Positions 6,484 through 62,177 of a DNA stretch of 63,094 bases are shown in pieces. Every line of letters begins with the position of its first letter. The first letter of the stretch is position 1. The translations under genes and the position numbers were made by a program. The stretch lies in NCBI RefSeq assembly GCF_004010195.1, contig NC_057749.1:18330488-18393581 (forward strand). Direction: 5' to 3'. The notes below the pieces were generated by a model. It was not told the origin of the DNA. It was given only the letters and a program-made list of their open reading frames with translations, and made no database searches. Source of the stretch: Chiloscyllium plagiosum. Its lineage: Eukaryota.

Positions 6484-7324
6484 TGTTGTCCTGTTTCCCC
6501 TCAATTGCAACAAAACACTCCGAGACACAACGTAGTTTTACCTCCTTCATCTTTATTCCAGGCCCTGGAGGGAGAGAGAACGATCGCCCATGTGCACAGA
6601 GACATGAGTTCACGGTCTTCTCTGGAACAGCAGTTTCTTTTTTTTTCTTTTTATGGTGTGTGTGTGTGCGCAGGTGTGAGACACAGTGAAAGACACAAAG
6701 TGCACAAATCTTTATTCAAATTCCACCACCAGGAAGATAGGAAAACACCCGGGTGGCCAGTGACAAACACTGCCCTTCACATCAAAGGGCAGTGCTGTGT
6801 GATCAAAACAGTGAGGGGGAGGGTAGGGACTAAATCAAAATAGAGTTGGAGGGAGAAAGAGCAGTTTCTTAATGAGTTATGTCGTCATTTTACAGGGAGG
6901 AGCATCCAGATAAGGCAACATACATATTGATTGGGTGACTGTTACAATCAGCAAGGGTCAATAGTAAAGACTAAGCCATCTGTTATTGAATGTTCTTAAT
7001 CTTAATTGGCTTCACATAATGAATACTTTTCACCTTGTTAACTGACCTCCCATACTGAATGTTTTCAATATTGTTAAATGGCTCTACATAATGAATGCTT
7101 TTCCACCTTGTTAACCCATTAACCTTGCCTCCAGCACCCCATTGTTAACTGCAAGTTCTTATCTGATCTGAGTTATGCTCAGCTGAACCTTTTGTTTCAC
7201 AAAACTCAAAACTTAACTGTTTCCCTACCTGCTCATACCTAATACACGTTCTCAGTGGGAAATGATATTTCTGCTGTAGTTACCGTCACTAGTTTGTATA
7301 GTCTGCACAGATAAAGTCTCAACA
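6484..7324 (-). mobile_element. Long terminal repeat (ERV/LTR retrotransposon), containing a younger insertion at 6640-6859
   Basis: TGTTG...CAACA termini. On the minus strand: U3 direct repeats (about 7015 and 7086), CCAAT (6930-6934), TGTAAAA TATA-like box (6888-6894), AATAAA (6552-6557). R/U5 part recurs at 12274-12368. Confidence 0.7.
6640..6859 (-). mobile_element. 5'-truncated polyadenylated non-LTR retroelement 3'UTR (L1/Tx1-like)
   Basis: 11-bp TSD AGCAGTTTCTT (6629-6639 and 6860-6870). Minus-strand AATAAA, (CA)n and A-rich tail. Target site TTCTT/AA. Confidence 0.8.
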
Positions 7325-7332
7325 TCAGCTTC

Positions 7333-8048
7333 TTGACCAAGAAAGCCTGGCAGCATTTCTACCTTCTGTGCAGGCTGAGGAAAGCCCACCTCCTCCTCTT
7401 CACCCCCCCCATCCTCACCACATTCTACAGAGGGTTCATTGAGAGTACCCTGAGCTACTGCATCACTGCTTGGTTCAGGAATTGCACAGTCTCACATTGT
7501 AAGACCCTACAATGGATAGTGAGGACAGCGGAGAAGATCATCGAGGTCTCAGTACCCTCCATTACAGACAATGTAATAGAAAAATGCTAAATAATAGACA
7601 TTCTTCTAGCAGCAATTTGAAGTCATACAAAGAATTTCAGGTGGGAAAGAATCCAGTCATACAGTGGCTTCAGAGAAGAAACTGTTGCACAGTCTGACCG
7701 TCAGAGAGTGAATGCTCCCTGTAATGGAGGGTACTGAGACCTCGATGATCTTCTCCGCTGTCCTCACTATCCATTGTAGGGTCTTACAATGTGAGACTGT
7801 GCAATTCCTGAACCAAGCAGTGATGCAGTAGCTCAGGGTACTCTCAATGAACCCTCTGTAGAATGTGGTGAGGATGGGGGGGTGAAGAGGAGGAGGTGGG
7901 CTTTCCTCAGCCTTGAGTGTTTTGTACTTATGCATTTTATGCCGTGTATGGTGGTGTCCATGTAGCGCCCTCACTCCTGTAGAAACACTGTCTCGTTTTT
8001 ACTGTATCTGTTGTATATGGCAGAAATGACAAATAAAAGCTACTCTTT
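7333..8048 (+). mobile_element. Rex1/Babar-type LINE 3' fragment with an internal inverted duplication
   Basis: KKAWQHFYLLCRLRKA...ILTTFYRGFIESTLSYCITAWFRNC...LQWIVRTAEKII is the Rex1 RT C-terminus. 3' tail actgta...tgacaaataaaag at about 8000-8040. Confidence 0.85.
7372..7913. repeat. Near-perfect inverted repeat: arms 7372-7567 and 7719-7913, 151-nt spacer
   Basis: The arms read as reverse complements, differing by eye only in a C8 versus G7 run. The ORF track shows the same peptide on both strands. Confidence 0.95.
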
Positions 8049-8744: not shown

Positions 8745-10535
8745 AGGTAAGGGGACTACTATGAGAAGGGAGGCAGTCAATAGAAGACTGAGGGTGTTGT
8801 ACTTAAATGAGCTCTGTATATGAACCAAGGCAAGTGAACTTGTAGCGCAGATTAAAATTAAAGGTTACAATGTGGGCATCACAGAGGTGTGGCTGCAAAG
8901 GCATCAGGGCTGGGATCTAAATATCCAAGGATATTTTCCCATTGAAAGGGCAGGCAGAGGGGGCAGGCTTGCCTTAATTGGTTTTAAAATAAAAGTGAAA
9001 TTAAGTCAACAGCAAGAAGTGATTTAGGGTTGGAAGGCATAGAATCTGTCTGAGTAGAGTTGAGGAACTGCAAAAAAAAAAGACCATGATGGGAGTTAGG
9101 TACTTGCTCCTTGCAGTACCCAGGATGTGGAGCAGAAAAGGCATATAAGCAAGGCACCAATAATCATGGGGGATCTTCAATATGCAGATTGACTGGGAAA
9201 ATCAGGTTCGTAGCAGATCCCAAGAAAATGAATTTGTGGATTGTTGGCGATATCCTTTTTGGAGCGGCTTGTGGTAGAGACCTCTAGAGAACAGGTTTTC
9301 TGTATTTGGAGATGTGTATTGAGGCAGACTTGATTAAGGAGGTTAAGGTAAAGGAACCCTGTAGGAGCAATGACCCCAATATAATAGAATTCACCCTGCA
9401 ATTTCAGAGGGAGAAGCTAGAATTCGATGTAATGGTGTTGCCGTTGAGTAAAAGTAACTGCATTGACCCGAAGGAGCTGGTCAGAGTTGACTGGAAGGGG
9501 ACCCTAACAGGGAAGATGGTGGAGCAGCAATGGCAGGAGTTTCCCTGGGTAATTCAGGAGGCACAGCAGAAATTCATCCCAAGGAAGAAGCAGCATGCTG
9601 ACAAGGAAAGTCAGGGACAGCATTTAAAAAAAACATACAAGGCTGTCAAAAACTAGCCGAGAACAACAAAAAAGCAGTAAGGAGGGAGAAGATGAAATAT
9701 GAGGGAAGGTGAGTGGGATGCAAGAGTGGACATTGGACTGCTGGAAAATGAGGCTGGAGAAGCAGTAATGAGAATAACTAAATATAGGTACTTGGCATCA
9801 ATCTTCATAATGGAAGGCAACAGTAGCATAGCACAGCTTCAAGAGTCAGGGACAGGGGTGAGTGTCATGGCTGTCACTATGGAAGAAGTGTTGGGAAAAC
9901 TGAAAGATCTAAAGATGGCTAAATCATCTGAATCGATGGACGGCACTCAGTTCTGAAGGAGATAGCTAAGGCAATTGTCAAGGCATTGATGGTGAACTTT
10001 CAAGAATCACTGGAATCAGGGGTGGTCCCAGAAGACTGGAAAATGGCTAATGTAATACCCCTGTTTAAGAAGAGTGGGAGGCAGAAGCTGGAAACTTACA
10101 GGCTGATTAGCCTGATCTTGGTCATTGGTATGATTTTAGAGATCATTATTAAGGATGGAATTGAGGAGTACTTGAAAGTACATCTCAAAATAGGGGCAAT
10201 GATGTCTCATAAATCAGAGTTCCTTGAAGAAGTAACAAGCAGGTTAGACATAGAGCCAGTGGATGTGATCTATTTGGATCCCCAGAATGCCTTTGACATG
10301 GTGGTGCATGCTGCTTAGAAAGATTAGAGCCCACTGTGTTAGGGCAAGGTACTGGCATGGATAGAAGGTTGGCTGACTGACAGAAGGCAGAAAGTAGGGA
10401 TAAAAGGGTCCTTTCAGAATGGCAACCTTAAGCTGCAGCAAGTTCTGCAGGGGTCCATGTTGGGATCACAACTATTCACATTAATGCTATGGACAAAGGA
10501 ACTGAGGGCATTGTTGCTAAGTTTGCAGATGATGC
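8745..10535 (+). mobile_element. CR1 LINE ORF2 remnant (APE endonuclease to RT; many frameshifts)
   Basis: GITEVWLQ, IIMGD, SNDPNIIEF, GVVPEDWKMANVIPLFKK, VDVIYLD...AFD, QGSMLG and KFADD motifs in order. Confidence 0.9.
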
Positions 10536-11830
10536 AAACAGAGAGTCTTGGTGACCAGATTAACCTAAAGAAATCTACTCCTGTCGTCCTGTCAGCCGTT
10601 GAAATTTCCTTTCTCATTCCTTCCTTACCCAAGGTGGTTACCAGTGCGAAAGCAGTTACACATTGAACTACACTAATTTGTGTCTGCCTATTTCAACATT
10701 CTTTGAATTCTTGAAGTCTGTTACTCTGTTCACTATTTATGACATTATCAAGTTTTATACAATCCAGAAACTTCTAAATTGTACTGCCTAAACAATTCAG
10801 TCAATTATAAACAACAATCGATGGTCCTAAAATCAAACCCTCGGGTGCCTTCATTCAGGTTAATCAAAGTTATTTTTCTTTAACAAATTGATACTTGGCT
10901 AATGTGAGAGCTGTCAGGAAAAGTATTTCAAAAGTCTGGAACAGCAAGGAAACAATAAAGTGTTTCCTGTGCTTTAGCAATTGAAGAGGCAGTTTCAGTT
11001 CCGATTTAAATTTCAAATATTCATGAGAAACAAATACTGAATATTTTAAAAATGTCCTCCAAATGAAACTTACCAAATAAAACAGTTGAAATTATGGTGG
11101 CAATTTTGGTAGAGATCAGTTTGCAATATGAAGGGGGTCAGTGAGGTCTTAACAATAATTAACAGAATTTAAGCAAGTTCTAATATTCTCTAAAATCTTA
11201 ACAAAACATCAAACTCAAAGTGCACTCTTTTTGTGAACACTCTGCATTAAAAACACAGCAGTAGTAAAGATATTTTAATCTAATACTCTCATCTGGCTAA
11301 AGCATGACCACTGACCCAACGGTTTGTTGTGTAAACAGGCGGTGTAGAATCTGAAACAAATCAGGGGCTCAAGGCACTGAATCAATTTGTTTTAAGGTTA
11401 CAAGTTTGATAATTTTGAAAGGACATAATGTACAATTACAATGTAAAAACAAAATCTGCCCCATGCCATAGCCCACAAAATACAGTGAATAGAGATCCTA
11501 ATTCAAGGTAAAACAGTTACTTAAAAGGATTTTTTGAACCAGGATTTTAACAAACCAAAATTTTTAAACATCACTCTCAGCATGGCACAATTTACATTGA
11601 AACTTTTCCTTTTCAGCCCAAGTATTAGTATAACCTTAGTTTCAGCATTTCTTGGTTTTTCGCATCCTCTGGTTGAAATTACACTTATAACAAGAGAAAG
11701 CCCTTCGCAGCAGACCACATGGCGCTGCAGTCCAAGCCACTGTCTTCCCCAGAACAAAAATTCGCAGAGCTTCCACTTTCGCCACTTTAACCCCTTTCTC
11801 ACTTTGCTGGAACCCCACTTAAACACAGAA

Positions 11831-12035
11831 AGCTCAAACCTCAGCACAGTGCGGAGGACTTGAACCTCAAATCAACCCACCCAGCAGACTCAAACTCCAG
11901 TATCGTGCAGAGGACTTGAACCTCAATTACACCCACCTCAGGGGGCTCAAACCCCAGTACTGTGCAGGAGACTTGAACTTCAACCCAAATCCACCCCAGC
12001 GGCCCCCCCAATGCAGTGCAGAGGACTTGAACCTT
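11831..12035 (-). repeat. Tandem repeat (54-57 nt period, about 3.5 units) of tRNA T-arm/B-box-like hairpins in the LTR-element leader
   Basis: GAGGACTTGAACCTC-like motif at 11854, 11910, 11967 and 12021, alternating with a GCTCAAACC-like motif at 11831, 11887 and 11941. Confidence 0.85.
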
Positions 12036-12254
12036 TGCCAGCCAGCGTGTTTGCAAAACTGTGTCTCATGACTTAACTAATTACTGTTTGAGGAATCCAA
12101 AGAATAGAGAGCGATTGACCAAGGAACAGTGTCTGGCATACAGGAATAGCGAGAGGGACCAAGGTTTAAAATCTTACCTTGTGGGCCCGTCCGTCTGGAG
12201 ACACCAATGTTCTGGGTGGCCGCTGACACTGTCTGATCGTAACTATCCATTTGG

Positions 12255-12272
12255 ATCTTGCTGACTACACCA
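12255..12272 (-). promoter_or_regulatory. Primer-binding site complementary to tRNA-Ser
   Basis: Minus strand TGGTGTAGTCAGCAAGAT versus TGGCGTAGTCGGCAGGAT (complement of the vertebrate tRNA-Ser AGA/TGA 3' end): 15/18, all transitions. Lies 1 nt from an LTR end. Confidence 0.8.
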
Positions 12273-12273
12273 A

Positions 12274-12368
12274 TATTGTCATCCTGTTCTCCCATTCCCC
12301 CCACCCCATCTTAATTCCAGGCCCTGGAGGGAGAGAGAACGATTGGTCTTCTCTGGAGCAGCAGTTTC
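12274..12368 (-). mobile_element. Partial 5' LTR (R/U5), same family as 6484-7324, truncated by the adjacent CR1
   Basis: atcttaattccaggccctggagggagagagaacgat...ggtcttctctggagcagcagtttc matches 6549-6637 with an internal deletion. Abuts the PBS. Confidence 0.75.
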
Positions 12369-13160
12369 ACAACATCCTTTCTATAGGAGGGAGTCCAGAA
12401 TTGAAGCCAATATTCCAATAGTGGCCTAACCAATATCCTGTACAGCAGCAGCATGACCTAACTCCTATACTCAGTCACTGACCAATAAAGGCAAGCAAAC
12501 CAAATGCTTTTCCTATCCTGCCTACCTGAGACTCCACTTTCAAGGAGCTCTGAAACCTGCACTGCAAGGTCACCTTGTTCAGCAATATTCCCCAGGACCT
12601 TACCATTGAGTGTATAAATCTTGCCCTGAGCTGCCTTTCCAAAATGCAGTACCTCACATTTATCTAAATTAAACTCTACCTGCTACTCCTCAGCCCATTG
12701 GCCCATGTGATAAGATCCCATTGTACTTTGAGGTAACCTCCTTCGCTGTCCACTACACCTTCAATTTTGGTGTCATCAGAAAACTTACTAACCATACCTC
12801 CTATGTTCACATCTAAATCATTTATGTCAATGGCAAAAAAACAGTGGACCCAGCACCGATCCTTGTGACACACCACTGACACAGGCCTCCAGTCTGGAAA
12901 GCAACCCTCCATCACCACCCTCTATGTTCTTCCTTTGAGCCAGTTCTGTATCCAAATGGCTAGTTCTCTCTGTATTCCATGTGATCTAACCTTGTTAACC
13001 AGTCTCCCATGAGGAACCTTGTCGAACTCCTTATTGAAGTCCACATCGATCACATCCATCGCTCTGCCCTTATCAATCCTCTTTGTTACTTAAAAAAAAA
13101 TCAGTCAAGTTATTGAGACATGATTTCCCACACACTAAATCATGTTGACTGTCCTGAATT
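12369..13160 (-). mobile_element. CR1/HER1 LINE RT fragment
   Basis: INDLDVNIGGMVSKFSDDTKIEGVVDSE on the minus strand. Confidence 0.9.
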
Positions 13161-14387: not shown

Positions 14388-15000
14388 GAGAGAAGTGTTG
14401 ATGTGACCCTGATGTTTCACCGTAGTATCCAGCCATTTCTTGAGAGTCCAATGTCCAGACATAACCGTGTCCTCCGAGACTTCCCTCTTTGTAAAGCAAT
14501 CTCTTCATTCCTACACTTCATCTTCCTCATGTCCTATGACCAAAATTAGTATTATTTTTTCCAGAAAGAGACTGACTAGACTGCATGATAATTTAAATAG
14601 AACTGATAATGTGCTTTGATCAATGCTCTGTTGCATTTATCCATATCAGATCCACAGACTCACTTTGGTGTCTACTCTTAAATTACTGTTCCGCACAAAT
14701 GGCAATTTTAACACCTACTAACAAGCACCATGTTTGGTTTTGTTTCGGCTATTCCTATTCTACATTTTCCCTTGATAATCACTCACTATCGGATTTTAGT
14801 GCTATGTCTTATCTGGGCTTTTGGAATATTTGGTACCATACACCTTATAAATTGAGTGTAATCAGCTTATGTCTAAATCTTTATCAGGTTACTTTACTAT
14901 TTATGCTGCAGTTTCTTTTCTGTTCAGAGCTCATTGGATTAAATTATAATTGAAGTATAAAATGCTCCAACCCTTCACATTAGGGGATGTAGAGGGGTTG

Positions 15001-15180
15001 AAAATGTGTTGCTGGAAAAGCGCAGCAGGTCAGGCAGCATCCAAGGAACAGGAGAATCGACGTTTCGGGCATAAGCCCTTCTTCTCCCCTGCTCCTTGGA
15101 TGCTGCCTGACCTGCTGCGCTTTTCCAGCAACACATTTTCAGCTCTGATCTCCAGCATCTGCAGTCCTCACTTTCTTCTC
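15001..15180 (+). mobile_element. Fold-back PLE-derived element
   Basis: Perfect 15-bp TSD GATGTAGAGGGGTTG (14986-15000 and 15181-15195). Inverted arms at about 15001-15052 and 15088-15139. Confidence 0.9.
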
Positions 15181-15195
15181 GATGTAGAGGGGTTG

Positions 15196-15760
15196 CCTTG
15201 GCATAGTGGCAATTTGACGAGACTAGCAATTCAGAACCCCAGGGCAATGTTCTGAGGATATGTGTTCAAGTGCCATCATGGTAACATTTTAATTGAAGAA
15301 AAATATCTGGAATGAAGAGAATAGGTGACCATGTGACCACAATCAATTGCTGTAAAAGGCCCACCTAGTTCACTCATGTCCTTTTGAGAAGGAAATCTGC
15401 TGCCTTTGCCTATCTGTGACCAATGTCTAGATTAGAGTGGTGCTGGAAAAGCACAGCAGGTCAGGCAGCATCCGAGGAGCAGGAGAATCGATGTTTTGGG
15501 CAAAAGTCCTTCATCAGGAGTGGAGCTGTGACCACTGTTAGCTGCTCCGATGTTCCACACAGGGCCGGTACCTGAATCAGGCCAGTGACTTCTGGTTCCA
15601 GACAATTGTTCTGTGCATGGGCCTCCGAGGCCTGCGCAGCCAGTAAGAAAATTAGAGGGAATGCTGCATGTGATTCCAGACTTTTAGCGACTCTTAAATG
15701 ATCTCTGGGCTATTAGGAATGGGCAATAATTGCCTATAATGCCCACATCTCCTAAAGGAC
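15196..15760 (+). mobile_element. tRNA-derived SINE with RTE-X-like tail, interrupted by insertions at about 15423-15665
   Basis: Same family motifs as 3862-4098. gggcaataattgcc...gcccacatc tail. Confidence 0.55.
15423..15525 (-). mobile_element. Single-arm PLE pseudo-LTR fragment with a decayed hammerhead-like core
   Basis: Minus strand cctgatgaaggacttttgcccaaaacatcg. 9-bp flanking direct repeat CTGTGACCA (15414-15422 and 15526-15534). Confidence 0.75.
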
Positions 15761-29034: not shown

Positions 29035-29345
29035 TTTCATTCAATCACAGAATAAGGGCATAACTGGCTAGGTCAACATTTAATGCCAATCCCTAATTGC
29101 TGTGGGTCTGGACTCACACACAGGCAATGTAAGGACAACAGATTTCTTCCAAAAGGACATTAGTGAACCAGATGGGTTTTACCAACAATTGACAATGGAT
29201 TCCTGGTCATAGGCTCTTAATTCCAAATATTTGTTGGATTCAAATTTCACCATTTGTTGTAGCAGGATTCGAACCCAGATTGCCAGAACATTACCTGGGT
29301 TTTGGAGTCAAGAGTCCAGCGATAATACCACTAGGCCATTACCTC
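29035..29345 (-). mobile_element. tRNA-derived SINE with RTE-X-like tail
   Basis: ggacattagtgaaccagatgggtttt; caggattcgaaccc B-box; ataataccactaggcc head. Confidence 0.7.
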
Positions 29346-43847: not shown

Positions 43848-45420
43848 GGATGTAGGTTTGCTCACTGAGCTGGAAGGTTCATTTCCAGATTTTGTTACCC
43901 TGCTAGCTAACATCTTCAGTGGGCCTCAGGCAAAGCATGCTGAAAATTCCTGCTTTCTATTTATATGTCTGGGTTTCTTTGGGTTAGTGATGTCATTTCC
44001 TGTGGTAAAGTCACTTCCTGTTCCTTTTCTCAGGGGGTGGTAGATGGGGTCTAATTCGATGTGTTTGTTGATAGATTAGATTCCCTACAGCGTGGAAACA
44101 GGCCCTTCGGCCCAACCAGTCCACACCGACACTCCGAAGAGTAACCCACACACACCCATCCCCCTCTGACTAATGCACCTAACACTATGGACAATTTAGC
44201 ATGGCCAATTTACCTGACCTGCACATCTTTGGACTGTGGGAGGAAACTGGAGCACCCGGAGGAACCCCACACAGACACGGGGAGAATGTGCAAACTCCAC
44301 ACAGACAGTTGCCCAAGGCTGGAATTGAACCTGGGATCCTGGTGCTGTGAGGCAGCAGTGCTAACCACTGAGCCACCGTGCCCTCCCCTGGTTGGAATGC
44401 CATGCTTCTATGAATTCTCGTGCGTGTCTTTGTTTGGCTTGTCCTAGGATGGATGTGTTGTCCCAGTCAAAGTGGTGTCCTTCCTTACCTGTATGTAAGG
44501 GATTAGTGAGAGAGGGTCATGTCGTTTTGTGGCTAGTTGATGTTCATGTATCCTGGTGGCTAGTTTTCTGCCTGTTTGTCCAATATAGTGTTTGTTACAG
44601 TCCTTGCATGATATTTTGTAAATGACATTAGTTTTGCTTGTTGTCTGTATAGGGTCTTTCAAGTTCATTAGCTGCTGTTTTAGTGTGTTGGTGGGTCTGT
44701 GGGCTACCATGATGCCAAGGGGTCTGAGTAGTCTGGCAGTCATTTCTGAGATGTCTTTGATGTAGGGGAGAGTGGCTAGGGTTTCTGGATGCGTTTTGTC
44801 TGCTTGTTTGGGTTTGTTGCTGAGAAATCGGCGGACTGTGTTCATTGGGTACCCATTCTTTTTGAATACATGTTATAGATGATATTCCTCTGCTCTGCAT
44901 AGTTCCTCTGTGCTGCAGTGTGTGTTGGCTCATTGAAGTAATGTTTTGATGCAGCTACGTTTGTGGGTGTTGGGATGATTGCTTCTGTAGTTCAATATTT
45001 GGTCCCTATTTATTGTTTTTCTGTAGACGCTGGTTTGAAGTTCCCTGTTGGTTGTTCACTCTACTGTGACATCTAGGAATGGCAGTTTGTTGTTGTTTTC
45101 CTCTTTAGTGAATTTTATGCCAGTCAGGGCATTATTGATGGTCTTGAAGGTTTCTTCTAACTTGTTTCGTTTAGTGATGACAAAGATGTCATCCACGCAG
45201 CGGGCCCAGAGTTTGGGTTGGATGGTTGGCAGAGCTGTTTGCTCAAGTCTCTGCATTACTGCCTCTGCTAAGAACCCTGATATCAAAGATCCCATGGGTG
45301 TTCCGTTGATTTTGTTGTTGAAGGTGAAGAGGGTGGTAATACATAGGTCGACTACCTTGATGATATTCTCCTTGTTGATGAAGTTAGTGGTGTTTGGTGT
45401 ATGTGTCTTTGGATCTTCTC
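43848..45420 (-). mobile_element. Penelope-like element (RT, GIY-YIG and pseudo-LTR), 5'-truncated, with an HE1 insertion
   Basis: PMGSLISG...WARCVDDIFVI...KLPFLDV (RT) and NVIYKISCKDCNKHYIGQTGRKLATRIHEH (GIY-YIG). The pLTR hammerhead core is decayed (GAAA to AAAA). Confidence 0.92.
44074..44382 (-). mobile_element. HE1-type V-SINE inserted in the Penelope element
   Basis: Full head ggcacggtggctcagtggttagc, V-domain and (aatct)n tail. Confidence 0.92.
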
Positions 45421-46070: not shown

Positions 46071-46378
46071 GGCACGGTGGCACAGTGGTTAGCACTGCTG
46101 CCTCACAGCGCCAGAGACCTGGGTTCAGTTCCCGTCTCAGGCGACTCTCTGTGTGGAGTTTGCACATTCTCCCCGTGTCTGTGTGGGTTTCCTCCAGGTG
46201 CTCCGGTTTCCTCCTACAGTCCAAAGCGGTGCAGGTTAGGTGAATTGGCCATGCTAAATTTCCCGTAAAGTTAGGTGAAGGGGTAAATGTAGGGGTCTGT
46301 TGGGGTTGCGCTTCAGCGGGTCGGTGTGGACTTGTTGGGAAGGGCCTGTTTCCACACTATAAGTAATCTAATCTAATC
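46071..46378 (+). mobile_element. HE1-type V-SINE
   Basis: tRNA-like head, V-domain, gggcctgtttccacact and aatctaatct tail. Confidence 0.92.
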
Positions 46379-52245: not shown

Positions 52246-53150
52246 TGCTTGAGTCATAGTCATTGAATCATACAGCATGGAAACAGATCTTGGTCCATCT
52301 TGTCCATGCTGACCAGATGTTCCAATCTGACTTAGTCCCATTTGCCAGCAGTTAGCCAATATCCCTCAAAGTCCTTCCTATTTAGAGACCCATTCAGATG
52401 CCTTTTAAATTCCCTCGGGCAGCTCTTACCATTCACGCACAACCCTCTGCGTGAAAATGTTACCCCTCGGGTCCTTTTTAAATCTTTTCCCTCTCACCTT
52501 AAACCTATGCCGTCTCGTTTTGGATTCCCTTACCCGAGGAAAAAGACCTTGGCTATTCACCCTATGCATCCCCTTATCATTTTATTAACCTCTAGAAGGT
52601 CACCCCTCAGCCTCCGATGCTCCAGGGAGAACAGCCCCAGCCTGTTCAGCTTCTACCTATCGCTCAAACCCTTCAGCCTTGGCAACATCCTTGTAAATCG
52701 TTTTTGCACCCTCTCAAGTTAACAACATCCATCCTGTAGAAGGGAAACCAGAATTGTATGCAGTGTTCTAAAAGTAGACACACCAGTGTCCTGAATATTC
52801 GCAATATGACATCCAAACTCCTACACTCAATGTTCTGACCAATGAAGGCAAAGTGCTGTCTTTACCACACTGTCTACCTGCAACACCCACTTTCAAGGAA
52901 CTGTACACCTGCATTCCTGGGTCTCTTTGCTCAGCAACACTCCCCAGGGCCCCACCATTAACTGTATAAAACCTGCCCTGATTTGCCTTGCCAAAATGCA
53001 ACACCTCACATTTATCAAAATTAAACTCCATCTGCCACTCTTTGGCCCATTGGTCCATCTGATCATGGTCCCGTTCTACTCCGAGATAATCTTCTTCGCT
53101 GTAGATTATAACTATTTTGGTGTCATCTGCAAACTTACTAACCATGCCTT
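52246..53150 (-). mobile_element. CR1/HER1 LINE RT to 3' end
   Basis: MVSKFADDTKI...QMDQWAKEWQMEFNFDKCEVLHFG. (gactat)n tail. Confidence 0.9.
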
Positions 53151-53200
53151 CTATATTTGAGACTCCAGTCCATTTCTTTCATTCATCAACAATATCATAT

Positions 53201-53528
53201 GGTGGCACAGTGGTTAACACCGCTGCCTCACAGCGCCAGAGACCCGGGTTCAATTCCCACCTCAGGCAACTGTCTGTGTGGAGTTTGCACATTCTCCCCG
53301 TGTCTGCGTGGGTTTCCTCCGGGTGCTCCAGTTTCCTCCTACAGTCCAAAAATGTGCAGGTTAGGTGAATTGGCCATGCTAAATTGCCCGTAGTGTTGGG
53401 TGAAGGGGTAAATGTAGGGGAATGGGTCTGGGTGGGTTGCTCTTCAGAGGGTCTGTGTGGACTTGTTGGGCCGAAGGGCCTGTTTCCACACTGTGAGTAA
53501 TCTAACTGTAAGTAATCTAAATCTAAAT
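53201..53528 (+). mobile_element. HE1-type V-SINE
   Basis: Canonical head, V-domain and tail. Confidence 0.92.
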
Positions 53529-57095: not shown

Positions 57096-58366
57096 GAGTC
57101 ATAGAGTCATCAAGATGTACAGCACAGAAACAGACCCTTCGATTCAACTCGACCATGCCGACCAGATATCCTAACCTAATCTATTCTGATTTGCCAGCAC
57201 TTGGCCCATATCCCGCTAAACCCTTCCTATTCATATGCCCATCCAGATGCCTTTTAAATAATGCAATTGTACCAGCCTCTACCACTTCCTCTGGCAGCTC
57301 ATTCCATACACACACACACCACCCTACGCATGGAAAAGATTGCCCCTTAGGTCTCTTTTATATCTGTCCCCTCTCACCTTAAACCTATGCCCTCTAGTTC
57401 TGGACTACCCCAGCCCAGGGAAAAGACTTTGACTATTTATCCTCTCCATGCCCCTCGTGATTTTATCAACCTCTATAAGGTCACCCCTCAGTCTCCAACA
57501 CACCAAGGAAAACAGCCCCAGCCTTTTTAGCCTCTCCGTATAACTCAAATCCTCCAACCCTGGCAACATCCCTGTAAATCTTTTCTGAACCCTTTCAAGT
57601 TTCACAACATCCTTCTGCTAGGAAGGAGACCAGAATTGCACCCAGTATTCCAAAAGGGGCCTAACCAGTAACCTGTACAGCCACAACAAACCAGTAAAGG
57701 AAAGCATAGCAAATGCCTTCACTATCCTATCTACCTACGGCTCTACTTTCAAGGAGCTATGAACCTGCAATCCAAGGCCTCTTTGTTCAGCAACACTTCA
57801 TAGGACCTTACCATTAAGTGTATAAGTCCTGCTAAGATTTTCTTTCCTAAAATGCAGCACCTTGCATTTATCTAAATTAAACTCCATCTACCACTTCTCA
57901 GCCCATTGGCCCATCTGGTCAAGATCCCATTGTAACATTCGCTGTTCATTACACCAATTTTGGTGTCACCTGCAAACTTACTAACTATATCTCTTATGCT
58001 CACATCCAGATCATTTATATAAATGATGAAAAATAGTGGACTCAGCACCGATCCTTGTGCATTCCACTGCAGGCCTCCAGTCTGCAAAGCAACCCTCTAC
58101 CATCACCCTCTGTCTTCTACCTTTGAGTCAGTTCTGTATCCAAATGGCTAGTTCTCCCTGTATTCCATGTTTTATCTAACCTTGCTAACCGGTTTCCCAT
58201 GGGGAACCTTGGCGAACACCTTACTGAAGTCCATATAGATTACATCTACCGCTCTATCCTCATCAACCTCCTTTGTTACTTCAGTAAACTCAATCAAGTT
58301 TGTGAGACATGATTTCCCACACATAGTGTTGTTGACTATCCCTAATCAGTCCTTGCCTTTCCAAAT
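57096..58366 (-). mobile_element. CR1/HER1 LINE RT to 3' end
   Basis: QGSVLSPLFFIIYINDLD...SKFAGDTKIG and KLERVQKRFTGMLPGL...LRGDLIEV. (gactctat) tail. Confidence 0.92.
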
Positions 58367-61860: not shown

Positions 61861-62168
61861 GGGCGGCACAGTGGTTAGCACTGCTGTCTCACAGCGCCAG
61901 AGACCCAGGTTCAGTTCCCGCCTCAGGCGACTCTGTGTGGAGTTTGCACATTCTCCCCGTGTCTGCGTGAGTTTCCTCCGGGTGCTCCGGTTTCCTCCCA
62001 CAATCCAAAAATGTGCAGGTCAGGTGGATTGGCCATGCTAAATTGCCCGTAGTGTTAGGTGTAGGGGTAAATGTAGGAGAATGGGTCTGGGTGGGTTACG
62101 CTTCGGCGGGTTGGTGTGGACTTGTTGGGCCGAAGGGCCTGTTTCCACACTGTAAGTAATCTAATCTA
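61861..62168 (+). mobile_element. HE1-type V-SINE
   Basis: Canonical head, V-domain, and gggccgaagggcctgtttccacactgtaagtaatctaatcta tail. Confidence 0.92.
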
Positions 62169-62177
62169 AAAATCATA

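Follow-up and report, generated by a model that had tools for sequence, protein, structure and literature searches.

A 63,094-nt stretch of the genome of the shark Chiloscyllium plagiosum (contig NC_057749.1, positions 18,330,488 to 18,393,581; hereafter the window, whose numbering is used for all coordinates) carries on its minus strand a periodic array of small hairpin motifs resembling the T arm of tRNA. Here, we show that this array sits in the leader of a decayed long terminal repeat (LTR) retroelement belonging to a multicopy family, that its hairpins go back to a common loop of TTCGAGT/C, and that the number of its units differs between copies. Our preferred interpretation, which we hold tentatively and at somewhat less than even confidence, is that the array is a variable-number hairpin module acting in cis as a packaging or dimerisation element of the leader RNA, and that its likeness to a T arm does not reflect functional mimicry.

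Within 11832-12035, read on the minus strand, Tandem Repeats Finder (TRF) identified a tandem repeat with a unit of 56-57 bp (11832/3-12034, 3.6 copies, 72-75% matches), indicating that the periodicity stems from one duplicated unit and not from seven independent events. The array contains seven motifs of the GGTTYRAGYCC type, as the initial annotation had noticed from the letters alone. TTCAAGT loops lie at 12031-12025, 11977-11971, 11920-11914, and 11864-11858, at spacings of 54, 57, and 56 nt, and TTTGAGY loops at 11951-11945, 11894-11888, and 11838-11832. Its remark that some of these motifs no longer pair is also accurate, as a perfect 4-bp stem is retained in three of the seven. GGTTYRAGYCC itself occurs four times in the whole window, each time inside the array, compared with a mean of 0.18 in 100 shuffles, none of which reached four. 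Likewise, three of the six window matches to the B-box consensus GGTTCRANNCC fall within the array, where 0.87 would be expected for the whole window.

Two repeats make up this region. Array A (11844..12035, minus strand), delimited by TRF, family copies, and an alignment of 63 units, holds ~3.4 units of 56-57 bp, each composed of an A1 half (stem GAGG/CCTC) and an A2 half (stem GGGG/CCCC); the first unit in the window lacks the A2 hairpin. In sense order and on the minus strand, its hairpins are an A1 with three of four pairs (AAGG TTCAAGT CCTC, 12021..12035), an A1 with a broken stem (GAAG TTCAAGT CTCC, 11967..11981), an A2 with a perfect 4-bp stem (GGGG TTTGAGC CCCC, 11941..11955), an A1 with a perfect 4-bp stem (GAGG TTCAAGT CCTC, 11910..11924), an A2 with a broken stem (GGAG TTTGAGT CTGC, 11884..11898), and a further perfect 4-bp A1 (GAGG TTCAAGT CCTC, 11854..11868). 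All were read from the sequence, the first, third, fourth, and sixth also being captured by the motif counts. Array B follows as a remnant (11806..11843, minus strand), recognised from the sequence and from family copies, in which a 26-bp repeat is present in ~1.5 units (TGAGGTTTGAGCTTTCTGTGTTTAAG followed by a partial one). Its first unit forms the seventh hairpin (GAGG TTTGAGC TTTC, 11842-11828, minus strand, from the sequence), with two G.U and two Watson-Crick pairs. The extent given in the initial annotation therefore needs amending: the repeat at 11832-12035 is real, but the repeated region continues past its end to ~11806, and the last motif belongs to the 26-bp repeat.

In the 3.56-Gb host genome, the 205-bp array stretch is matched at least 61 times at 69-87% identity. 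The array is thus not unique to this locus; uniqueness is what the initial annotation had named as fatal to its proposal. The genome search yielded 224 first-look candidates, 40 of which were scored; the family comparison drew on 29 copies with flanks and on 8 that were extended to 10 kb. According to TRF, array A has a 57-bp unit present in 1.9-15.7 copies per family locus, consisting of a 27-nt A1 half (GAGG-loop-CCTC and a spacer) and a 30-nt A2 half (GGGG-loop-CCCC and a G/T-rich spacer). Array B comes directly after it, with 2.4-21.9 copies of a 26-bp unit in which a weaker hairpin is followed by TGTGTTTAAG. With head-to-tail units whose copy number differs between copies of the element, both arrays are minisatellites, i.e., variable-number tandem repeats (VNTR). 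A variant with a 57-58 bp repeat was observed in locus L040 (1700-2680), where more than 15 units carry the A1 hairpin only, an expansion of the first unit type that is broken by an N assembly gap.

To describe the module across the family, hairpins were located by loop and 3' context only, leaving the stems free to vary; a duplicate locus (L057, the same as L027) and seven non-family loci were left out. This census comprised 203 A1 modules in 52 loci, 103 A2 modules in 43 loci, and 225 B modules in 52 loci. Loop positions 3-4 read CG in 65, CA in 65, and TG in 39 of the A1 modules; CG in 31, CA in 21, TG in 19, and AG in 19 of the A2 modules; and CG in 88, TG in 69, and CA in 40 of the B modules. 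The commonest A1 loops are TTCAAGT (53 of 203), TTCGAGT (37), and TTTGAGT (25). Such a mix of CG, CA, and TG is what a CpG leaves behind as it decays, which gives TTCGAGT as the ancestral A1 loop. A2 and B behave like A1, and in the ancestral state the loop matches the T-loop consensus TTCRANY at every position. The CG that the initial annotation expected in the ancestral loops is thus recovered, as TTCGAGT/C.

The stems it described also hold for the family, as the commonest A1 stem (GAGG/CCTC, 108 modules in 47 loci) and the commonest A2 stem (GGGG/CCCC, 37 modules in 18 loci) are perfect 4-bp helices. The closing pair next to the loop is G-C in 168 of the 203 A1 and 77 of the 103 A2 modules. 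A possible fifth pair at the outer end would be T.T in 167/203 A1 and 75/103 A2 modules, which sets the stem at exactly 4 bp. B stems are weaker: four Watson-Crick pairs are found in only 8 of the 225 modules, and the closing pair is G.T in 88 or A-T in 59. At the inner B pairs, G.T occurs 88, 99, and 89 times, whereas A.C is rare, at 14 and 8 (88 versus 14, and 99 versus 8). A compensatory GAGA/TCTC stem for the B units was considered and rejected, since it seldom occurs, the stems common in B units being rich in G.U. A 17-nt hairpin core is common to A1, A2, and B, while the spacers of the three cannot be aligned with one another. Between the A1 and A2 cores, the one difference is a single stem pair in which both partners are changed, A-T in one and G-C in the other. 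Units are on average 0.83 identical within a locus and 0.77 between loci. The within-locus value is no higher than the identity between the two LTRs of one element, indicating that the arrays grew before or at insertion, in the replicating lineage, and not in place.

The copies to which these arrays belong are ~3.8 kb long and consist of a ~515 bp LTR, a primer-binding site (PBS), the leader, the arrays, ~1.4 kb of AT-rich non-coding sequence, a decayed reading frame, and a second LTR. In seven of the eight extended copies the 5' and 3' LTRs are 82-91% identical, indicating that the insertions are old; the eighth (L034) showed no 3' LTR. The decayed internal reading frame resembles the RNA recognition motif (RRM) of RBPMS/RBPMS2 (PDB 2m9k, E = 4.8e-22), and the Pfam RRM_1 score was under threshold. 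This frame lies at 2663-3070 in L032 and 2462-3239 in L034 and is also present in L035 and L037, and the window copy retains only its first codons near 10640. Apparently, a retrovirus transduced a host cDNA for an RNA-binding protein of this kind, after which the derivative came to outnumber its parent by far. The window copy belongs to this non-autonomous ~3.8 kb derivative, in which LTRs, PBS, and the entire leader through the last B unit are retained and gag-pol-env is replaced by host-derived sequence.

A gag-bearing parent is also present. In loci L068 and L047, LTR, PBS, leader, and arrays are as in the rest of the family, and a reading frame that starts MGQTLDK (ATG GGA CAG) follows ~65 nt past the last repeat. 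Internal fragments of the parent matched Pfam RVT_1, RNase H, integrase, and TLV_coat; except for the integrase zinc-binding domain, these matches were below the curated cut-off, a weakness attributable to the decay of the copies. The reverse-transcriptase fragment is closest to that of MoMLV/XMRV (E ~6e-8), and the integrase fragment resembles retroviral integrases. The parent can thus be classified, on homology, as a decayed class I, gamma/epsilon-like endogenous retrovirus. The 5' end of gag has 24 genome matches, compared with at least 61 matches or 224 candidates for the array, from which the RBPMS-carrying derivative is estimated to be ~10 times commoner than its gag-bearing parent. Hairpin arrays are kept in 8 of the 9 gag-bearing leaders examined (2 + 7 gag-adjacent); in the remaining one, L077, a deletion spans from the early leader to the last repeat and the array is lost. 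The median number of detected modules is ~4 in seven gag-bearing leaders and ~9 in 50 derivative copies, both being rough counts that stray matches inflate.

Along the element the order of parts is LTR, PBS, donor-like site, array A, array B, ~65 nt, and the gag ATG, so that on the genomic strand the array lies between the PBS with its donor-like site and the start of gag. The PBS of the window copy (TGGTGTAGTCAGCAAGAT; 12255..12272, minus strand), located by a genome pattern search, is the decayed form of a site complementary to host tRNA-Ser(AGA) at its 3' end, CCA included. An IUPAC pattern derived from the window and one family copy gave 80 genome matches, the window site included, against 0 for the reversed pattern used as control. 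The best-kept copies read TGGCGTAGTCGGCAGGAT, and three host genes with the 3' end GAATCCTGCCGACTACG were identified as tRNA-Ser(AGA) by ARAGORN; comparing the two shows that the 18-nt site is the exact complement of tRNA-Ser(AGA) plus CCA, from which the window PBS is three transitions away. The initial annotation had placed the array just downstream of the PBS, in agreement with the 237 nt that separate it from the site at 12272-12255. Among 30 fetched PBS sites, seven belong to other LTR families that share tRNA-Ser(AGA) and have unrelated leaders, and none of these seven loci contains a hairpin array. The array is therefore a trait of a single lineage and not a side effect of tRNA-Ser priming. 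At least three or four other LTR families with a tRNA-Ser(AGA) PBS were distinguished (L045/L054, L051/L062, L055/L064, and L049).

The splice-donor-like motif AAG/GTAAGA is found in the window at 12172..12180 (minus strand; from the sequence and a motif detector run across loci), ~90 nt 3' of the PBS start. It was located in 40 loci, 22 of which have exact GGTAAGAT, and among copies with both elements located it lies 60-90 nt, mostly ~90 nt, 3' of the PBS start, with one exception. From its agreement with the consensus, we infer that it is a splice donor.

Genome dimerisation and packaging depend on small stem-loops in retroviral leaders, and in simple retroviruses the dimerisation and encapsidation signal lies between the donor site and gag. 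The array, lying between the donor-like site and gag, occupies the site of such packaging signals, which is why we favour a packaging or dimerisation role. Moreover, the derivative retains the leader in full as far as the final B unit, the part that an element packaged in trans must keep, and has lost everything beyond. We infer this role, together with a hairpin-to-duplex switch, a nucleocapsid site, and an origin by template switching, along the following lines. The array is a nested minisatellite built from one ~17-nt module in which a stem of 4 bp carries a 7-nt loop, ancestrally UUCGAGY, and CUG comes next. Each module would fold as a small hairpin; alternatively, two modules could pair through UUCGAG, giving an extended duplex of ~10 bp in place of two hairpins. 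Such a duplex would leave the adjacent CUCUG, a UCUG-type pyrimidine-G stretch, single-stranded for nucleocapsid. As read from the sequence, self-pairing of UUCGAG involves 6 bp, including two G.U, and cofolding of the commonest modules gave -17 to -24 kcal/mol. Reverse-transcriptase template switching between direct repeats is known to alter repeat number, and the number of units would drift in this manner. The likeness to a T arm would be a by-product of the palindromic UCGA core.

In terms of function, the closest known system is the gammaretroviral packaging leader. Work on Moloney murine leukaemia virus (MoMuLV) describes pseudopalindromic stems of the dimerisation initiation site (DIS) that shift register on dimerisation, after which nucleocapsid (NC) binds the UCUG elements then exposed (PMC7599994). 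The array resembles the MoMuLV signal (DIS-1/DIS-2, SL-C/SL-D) in its leader position between PBS/donor and gag, in its small stem-loops, which are repeated and self-complementary in loop or stem, in the pyrimidine-rich UCUG beside the stems, and in being retained by non-autonomous elements that are packaged in trans. It differs in having a 7-nt UUCGAGY loop where MoMuLV has a GACG tetraloop, in the arrangement of the shark module in two tandem arrays of variable copy number, in the lack of sequence similarity, and in the absence of thermodynamic support for the array (z near 0, no RNAalifold pairs).

Evidence on selection and folding comes from an alignment of 63 A units, with at most three per locus, taken from 81 complete A1+A2 units in 38 loci. 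The hairpin and the CTG after it are at least 90% conserved, with columns 1-7, 10-13, and 15-18 of the core reaching this value, and the spacers are not. The excess of G.U over A.C in the B units is consistent with pairing of the sense RNA strand, although these counts are not independent, the units being copies of one another. Several other results weigh against a structured packaging element. The stem covariation across copies that the initial annotation had looked to as a test did not rise above shuffled expectation: 88.1% of cells at the two stems pair, compared with 87.9% after shuffling, and 175 of 500 shuffles were as high. Double changes in the 63 units showed no excess over shuffles either, leaving the single A-T/G-C difference between A1 and A2 as the sole compensatory signal. 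RNAalifold predicted no pairs for the 63 units. The folding energy of the window array was unremarkable against shuffles (z = -0.63 sense, -0.55 antisense), as was that of the L068 leader (z = -0.42), while six single units gave z from +0.06 to +0.94, and only two of the six have both small hairpins in their minimum-energy fold. Homodimer energies of CG-retaining modules gained nothing over shuffles, 26-49% of which equalled them. To this must be added the scarcity of fully Watson-Crick B stems (8/225), the free variation in copy number together with a gag-bearing copy that has no array, which implies that no fixed number is needed, and the fact that gene conversion could account for the conservation of the core among unit types. 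The UCUG-type nucleocapsid site is a putative one. The missing covariation is what neutral decay after insertion would produce in any case, and is neither evidence of absence nor support.

Taken by themselves, several of these results are what would be seen if the array were a neutral minisatellite, in which a quasi-palindromic 26-nt unit was expanded by template switching or slippage, with no function and only an accidental T-arm look. The wide copy-number ranges of A and B units, the loss of the array in gag-bearing L077, the lack of covariation within the family, the lack of a predicted consensus structure, and fold and dimer energies that match shuffles all accord with it. We nevertheless regard it as unlikely, though by no means negligible, because neutrality leaves unexplained why three unit types with spacers too diverged to align have a 17-nt core in common, why the A1 and A2 cores differ at both partners of one base pair only, why G.U pairs in B units far exceed A.C, and why the array is retained in eight of nine gag-bearing leaders and in the derivative. 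A comparable case is the VNTR of SVA, a minisatellite inside a retroelement. SVA shares head-to-tail units of tens of bp and copy numbers that differ among copies, and it differs from the present array, which has a conserved hairpin core across three unit types and is situated in a retroviral packaging leader.

In appearance, the closest systems are the tRNA T arm and B-box, the HIV-1 tRNA-like element (TLE), and the Pol III cluster of bovine leukaemia virus (BLV), and the remaining explanations take this appearance at face value. The array could be a true T-loop mimic in the genomic RNA, binding factors that recognise tRNA (modification enzymes, eEF1A, the synthetase complex, or Gag matrix are candidate partners) or kissing the T-loop of tRNA-Ser, and thereby aiding primer placement or packaging. 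The ancestral TTCGAGT/C does fit TTCRANY throughout, most A1 and A2 loops are closed by G-C, and a tRNA-Ser PBS is near. A T arm or B-box, however, requires G53-C61, the pair that closes the T-loop, and a T stem has 5 bp. Here the stem has only 4 bp, with T.T at the fifth position, B units lack the G53-C61 pair, and isolated hairpins are weak, at -1 to -7 kcal/mol. Only 12 of 17 module positions are alike between the module and the T arm of host tRNA-Ser, a likeness no greater for tRNA-Ser than for many tRNAs. Rfam searches were negative for tRNA and for every other family, both in the window region (E up to 10) and in seven better-kept loci (E up to 1), and ARAGORN found no tRNA in the window. 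Across the family, ARAGORN made marginal cloverleaf calls at four places in 3 of 58 loci, all on the sense strand in array A: L004:1305-1378 and 1419-1492, L023:1771-1852, and L029:1352-1439, reported as Ser-CGA, Ser-TGA, and Leu-GAG. In these pseudo-tRNAs the A2 hairpin plays the part of the T arm and the A1 hairpin that of the anticodon arm, with CGA, TGA, or GAG read as the anticodon. Such cloverleaf threading could be counted in favour of mimicry; its poor quality shows how generic the tRNA likeness is, and annotation pipelines may mislabel arrays of this kind as tRNA genes. We know of no factor that reads a lone T arm in a retroviral leader. A precedent beside a PBS is the HIV-1 TLE, a leader element resembling part of a tRNA, which mimics the anticodon arm of the tRNA-Lys3 primer and binds LysRS (PMC11181671). 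That element copies an anticodon arm rather than a T arm, whereas the array resembles a generic T arm, is repeated, and lies ~237 nt 3' of the PBS. Overall, we consider T-loop mimicry improbable. Thus, the tRNA-mimic claim of the initial annotation finds no support in view of the 4-bp stem, the lack of an Rfam tRNA, the B units lacking G53-C61, and the lack of a consensus fold; of the packaging or primer role it envisaged, packaging is plausible, through ordinary leader stem-loops and not through tRNA mimicry. Pairing of the module with the PBS, or PAS-like pairing with the T stem of tRNA-Ser, was also considered and rejected, as no convincing complementarity was seen by eye.

At the DNA level, the GGTTCGAGTCC motifs of the provirus might instead be TFIIIC sites that serve as a barrier or insulator against silencing, or internal Pol III promoters of small RNAs. 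The ancestral A1 and A2 cores correspond exactly to GGTTCRANNCC, as three motifs in the window still do, with up to two motifs per 57 bp in a single orientation. In addition, BLV is on record with clustered type-2 Pol III promoters (PMC12498455). The array shares with T-arm and B-box sequences, extra-TFIIIC sites, and the BLV Pol III microRNA cluster the GGTTCRANNCC motif, the TTCRANY loop, closure of the loop by G-C, and clustering with a single orientation. It differs from them in its 4-bp stem, in lacking a cloverleaf and a T-run terminator (no stretch of at least four T occurs in the window array), in being part of a Pol II leader, and in a third unit type that breaks the B-box. No convincing A-box was seen in the array by eye, a formal scan not having been made, and the units do not fold into pre-miRNA-like hairpins. 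The covarying core positions 2 and 14 lie outside the 11-nt B-box and are not predicted by it, and conservation continues 3' of the B-box into CTCTG. G53 and C61 are key B-box positions in tRNA promoter genetics, and the B units alter both. A function as a B-box array is accordingly quite improbable in our view. What positive support the tRNA-mimic and TFIIIC readings have is the motif itself, and we give little credence to the broader proposition that uniting them would yield, namely that multivalent genuine T-loop hairpins or DNA B-boxes recruit host tRNA machinery, be it T-loop binders, the primer tRNA, or TFIIIC. A further candidate ancestor of the module is the 3' portion of a cellular tRNA or tRNA-derived SINE that entered the leader by recombination; the resemblance would then be due to descent, with or without function later on. 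Such a capture would explain the tRNA-like loop and closing pair, in length the 26-nt unit roughly equals a T arm plus the 3' acceptor strand, and the same lineage did capture host RNA in the form of the RBPMS-like reading frame. We judge it very improbable: a cloverleaf 5' of the first hairpin was rejected because D and anticodon arms fail to pair by eye, neither Rfam nor ARAGORN gave a consistent tRNA, the likeness to the host tRNA-Ser T arm is limited to 12 of 17 positions, and a tRNA-derived SINE in L054 has a different B-box region. The packaging and dimerisation module thus stays our preferred, if tentative, explanation.

The rest of the window copy is heavily eroded. Of its 5' LTR, a 3'-end remnant of ~100 nt with two internal deletions is left at 12273..12372 (minus strand), recognised by local alignment to the LTR of copy L012, and together with the tRNA-Ser(AGA) PBS it identifies the element as the minus-strand LTR retroelement that the initial annotation had assumed. 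Everything 5' of this remnant has been replaced by LINE sequence, with a LINE reverse-transcriptase fragment at 12363-13154. BLAST homology of the window to family copies begins at 12293-12307 and breaks off at 10604. Downstream of the arrays, a non-coding internal region of the non-autonomous family (10604..11805, minus strand) was delimited by homology to family copies; it ends at 10604, where the RBPMS-like reading frame would start, with LINE-like sequence beyond. No gag, pol, or env genes are present in the window copy itself. An LTR of the same family with a ~250 bp extra insertion was found at 6511..7254 (minus strand; 83-90% identity to the LTRs of L012 and L031) and is a candidate 3' LTR of the window copy, the two presumably belonging to the same insertion. 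A direct-repeat search with ungapped seeds over window positions 1-25000 detected no LTR pair, and the relation emerged through the family copies.

None of the listed data sets that contain the stretch is recorded as RNA. Mapping of polyA RNA from two single-cell runs to 10600-12400 gave 6 and 0 reads, and one contig set yielded short repeat-derived contigs in this interval. Depth over the array was 0-3, and these data are uninformative about expression. Three polyA-RNA reads at 12307-12368 leave the LTR into a poly(A) tail shortly past an AATAAA-like signal, marking the likely R/U5 border. These reads are 95-99% alike and so probably come from other family copies, a hint that some family copy is still transcribed.

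The surroundings are rich in other repeats. Fragments of CR1/L2-like LINE reverse transcriptase flank or interrupt the element at 12363-13154 (minus strand), 9288-10663 (plus strand), and 7315-7998, and the sequence at 12481-13154 recurs at 57690-58341, 55017-54559, and 52719-53154. Within LINE-like sequence, 7372-7567 and 7913-7719 form a 196-bp inverted duplication that is 99.5% identical and far younger than all surrounding sequence. A palindromic MITE-like repeat with inverted halves and a short centre occurs at 14997-15183 and 15421-15525, and is also inserted within hairpin arrays of the family (L040 ~2681-2890, L048 ~2186-2265, and L076 1-70). Furthermore, a ~300-bp interspersed repeat is present at 44069-44382, 46076-46376, 53201-53505, and 61862-62169, with copies 83-91% identical; it has GGTTCAATTCC B-box matches at 44321 and 53247 and is probably a tRNA-derived SINE, similar to one in locus L054. 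A perfect GGTTCGAATCC B-box match outside the array lies at 29265-29275 (minus strand), where ARAGORN called no tRNA.

As for the element as a whole, mouse VL30 and ETn are non-autonomous retroelements, and acutely transforming retroviruses carry host cDNA. The shark derivative is alike in that it keeps LTRs, PBS, and leader, has gag-pol-env replaced, contains a host-derived RRM piece, and outnumbers its parent. It differs from transforming retroviruses in that the captured piece comes from an RNA-binding protein that is no known oncogene and in that all copies are decayed. The likeness to VL30 and ETn concerns the element, not the array. In open-access text we found no description of a tandem array of T-loop-like hairpins in a retroviral leader, although a shark-specific one could lie elsewhere. 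A leader element that has been amplified to give two nested arrays of variable copy number, and whose loop agrees throughout with the T-loop and B-box consensus, is thus apparently undescribed. Its setting is an endogenous retrovirus derivative that appears to have picked up an RBPMS-like RNA-binding domain by transduction and to have proliferated in the germ line afterwards. Should the module prove to be a T-loop or TFIIIC element, it would constitute a new link between retroviruses and tRNA machinery and a new kind of retroviral tRNA mimicry, and recruitment of that machinery by an amplified array could explain how the RBPMS-carrying derivative outcompeted its parent. If, on the other hand, the array is a packaging unit, the family would represent a natural experiment on signal dosage, with a median of roughly 4 modules in the parent and roughly 9 in the derivative.

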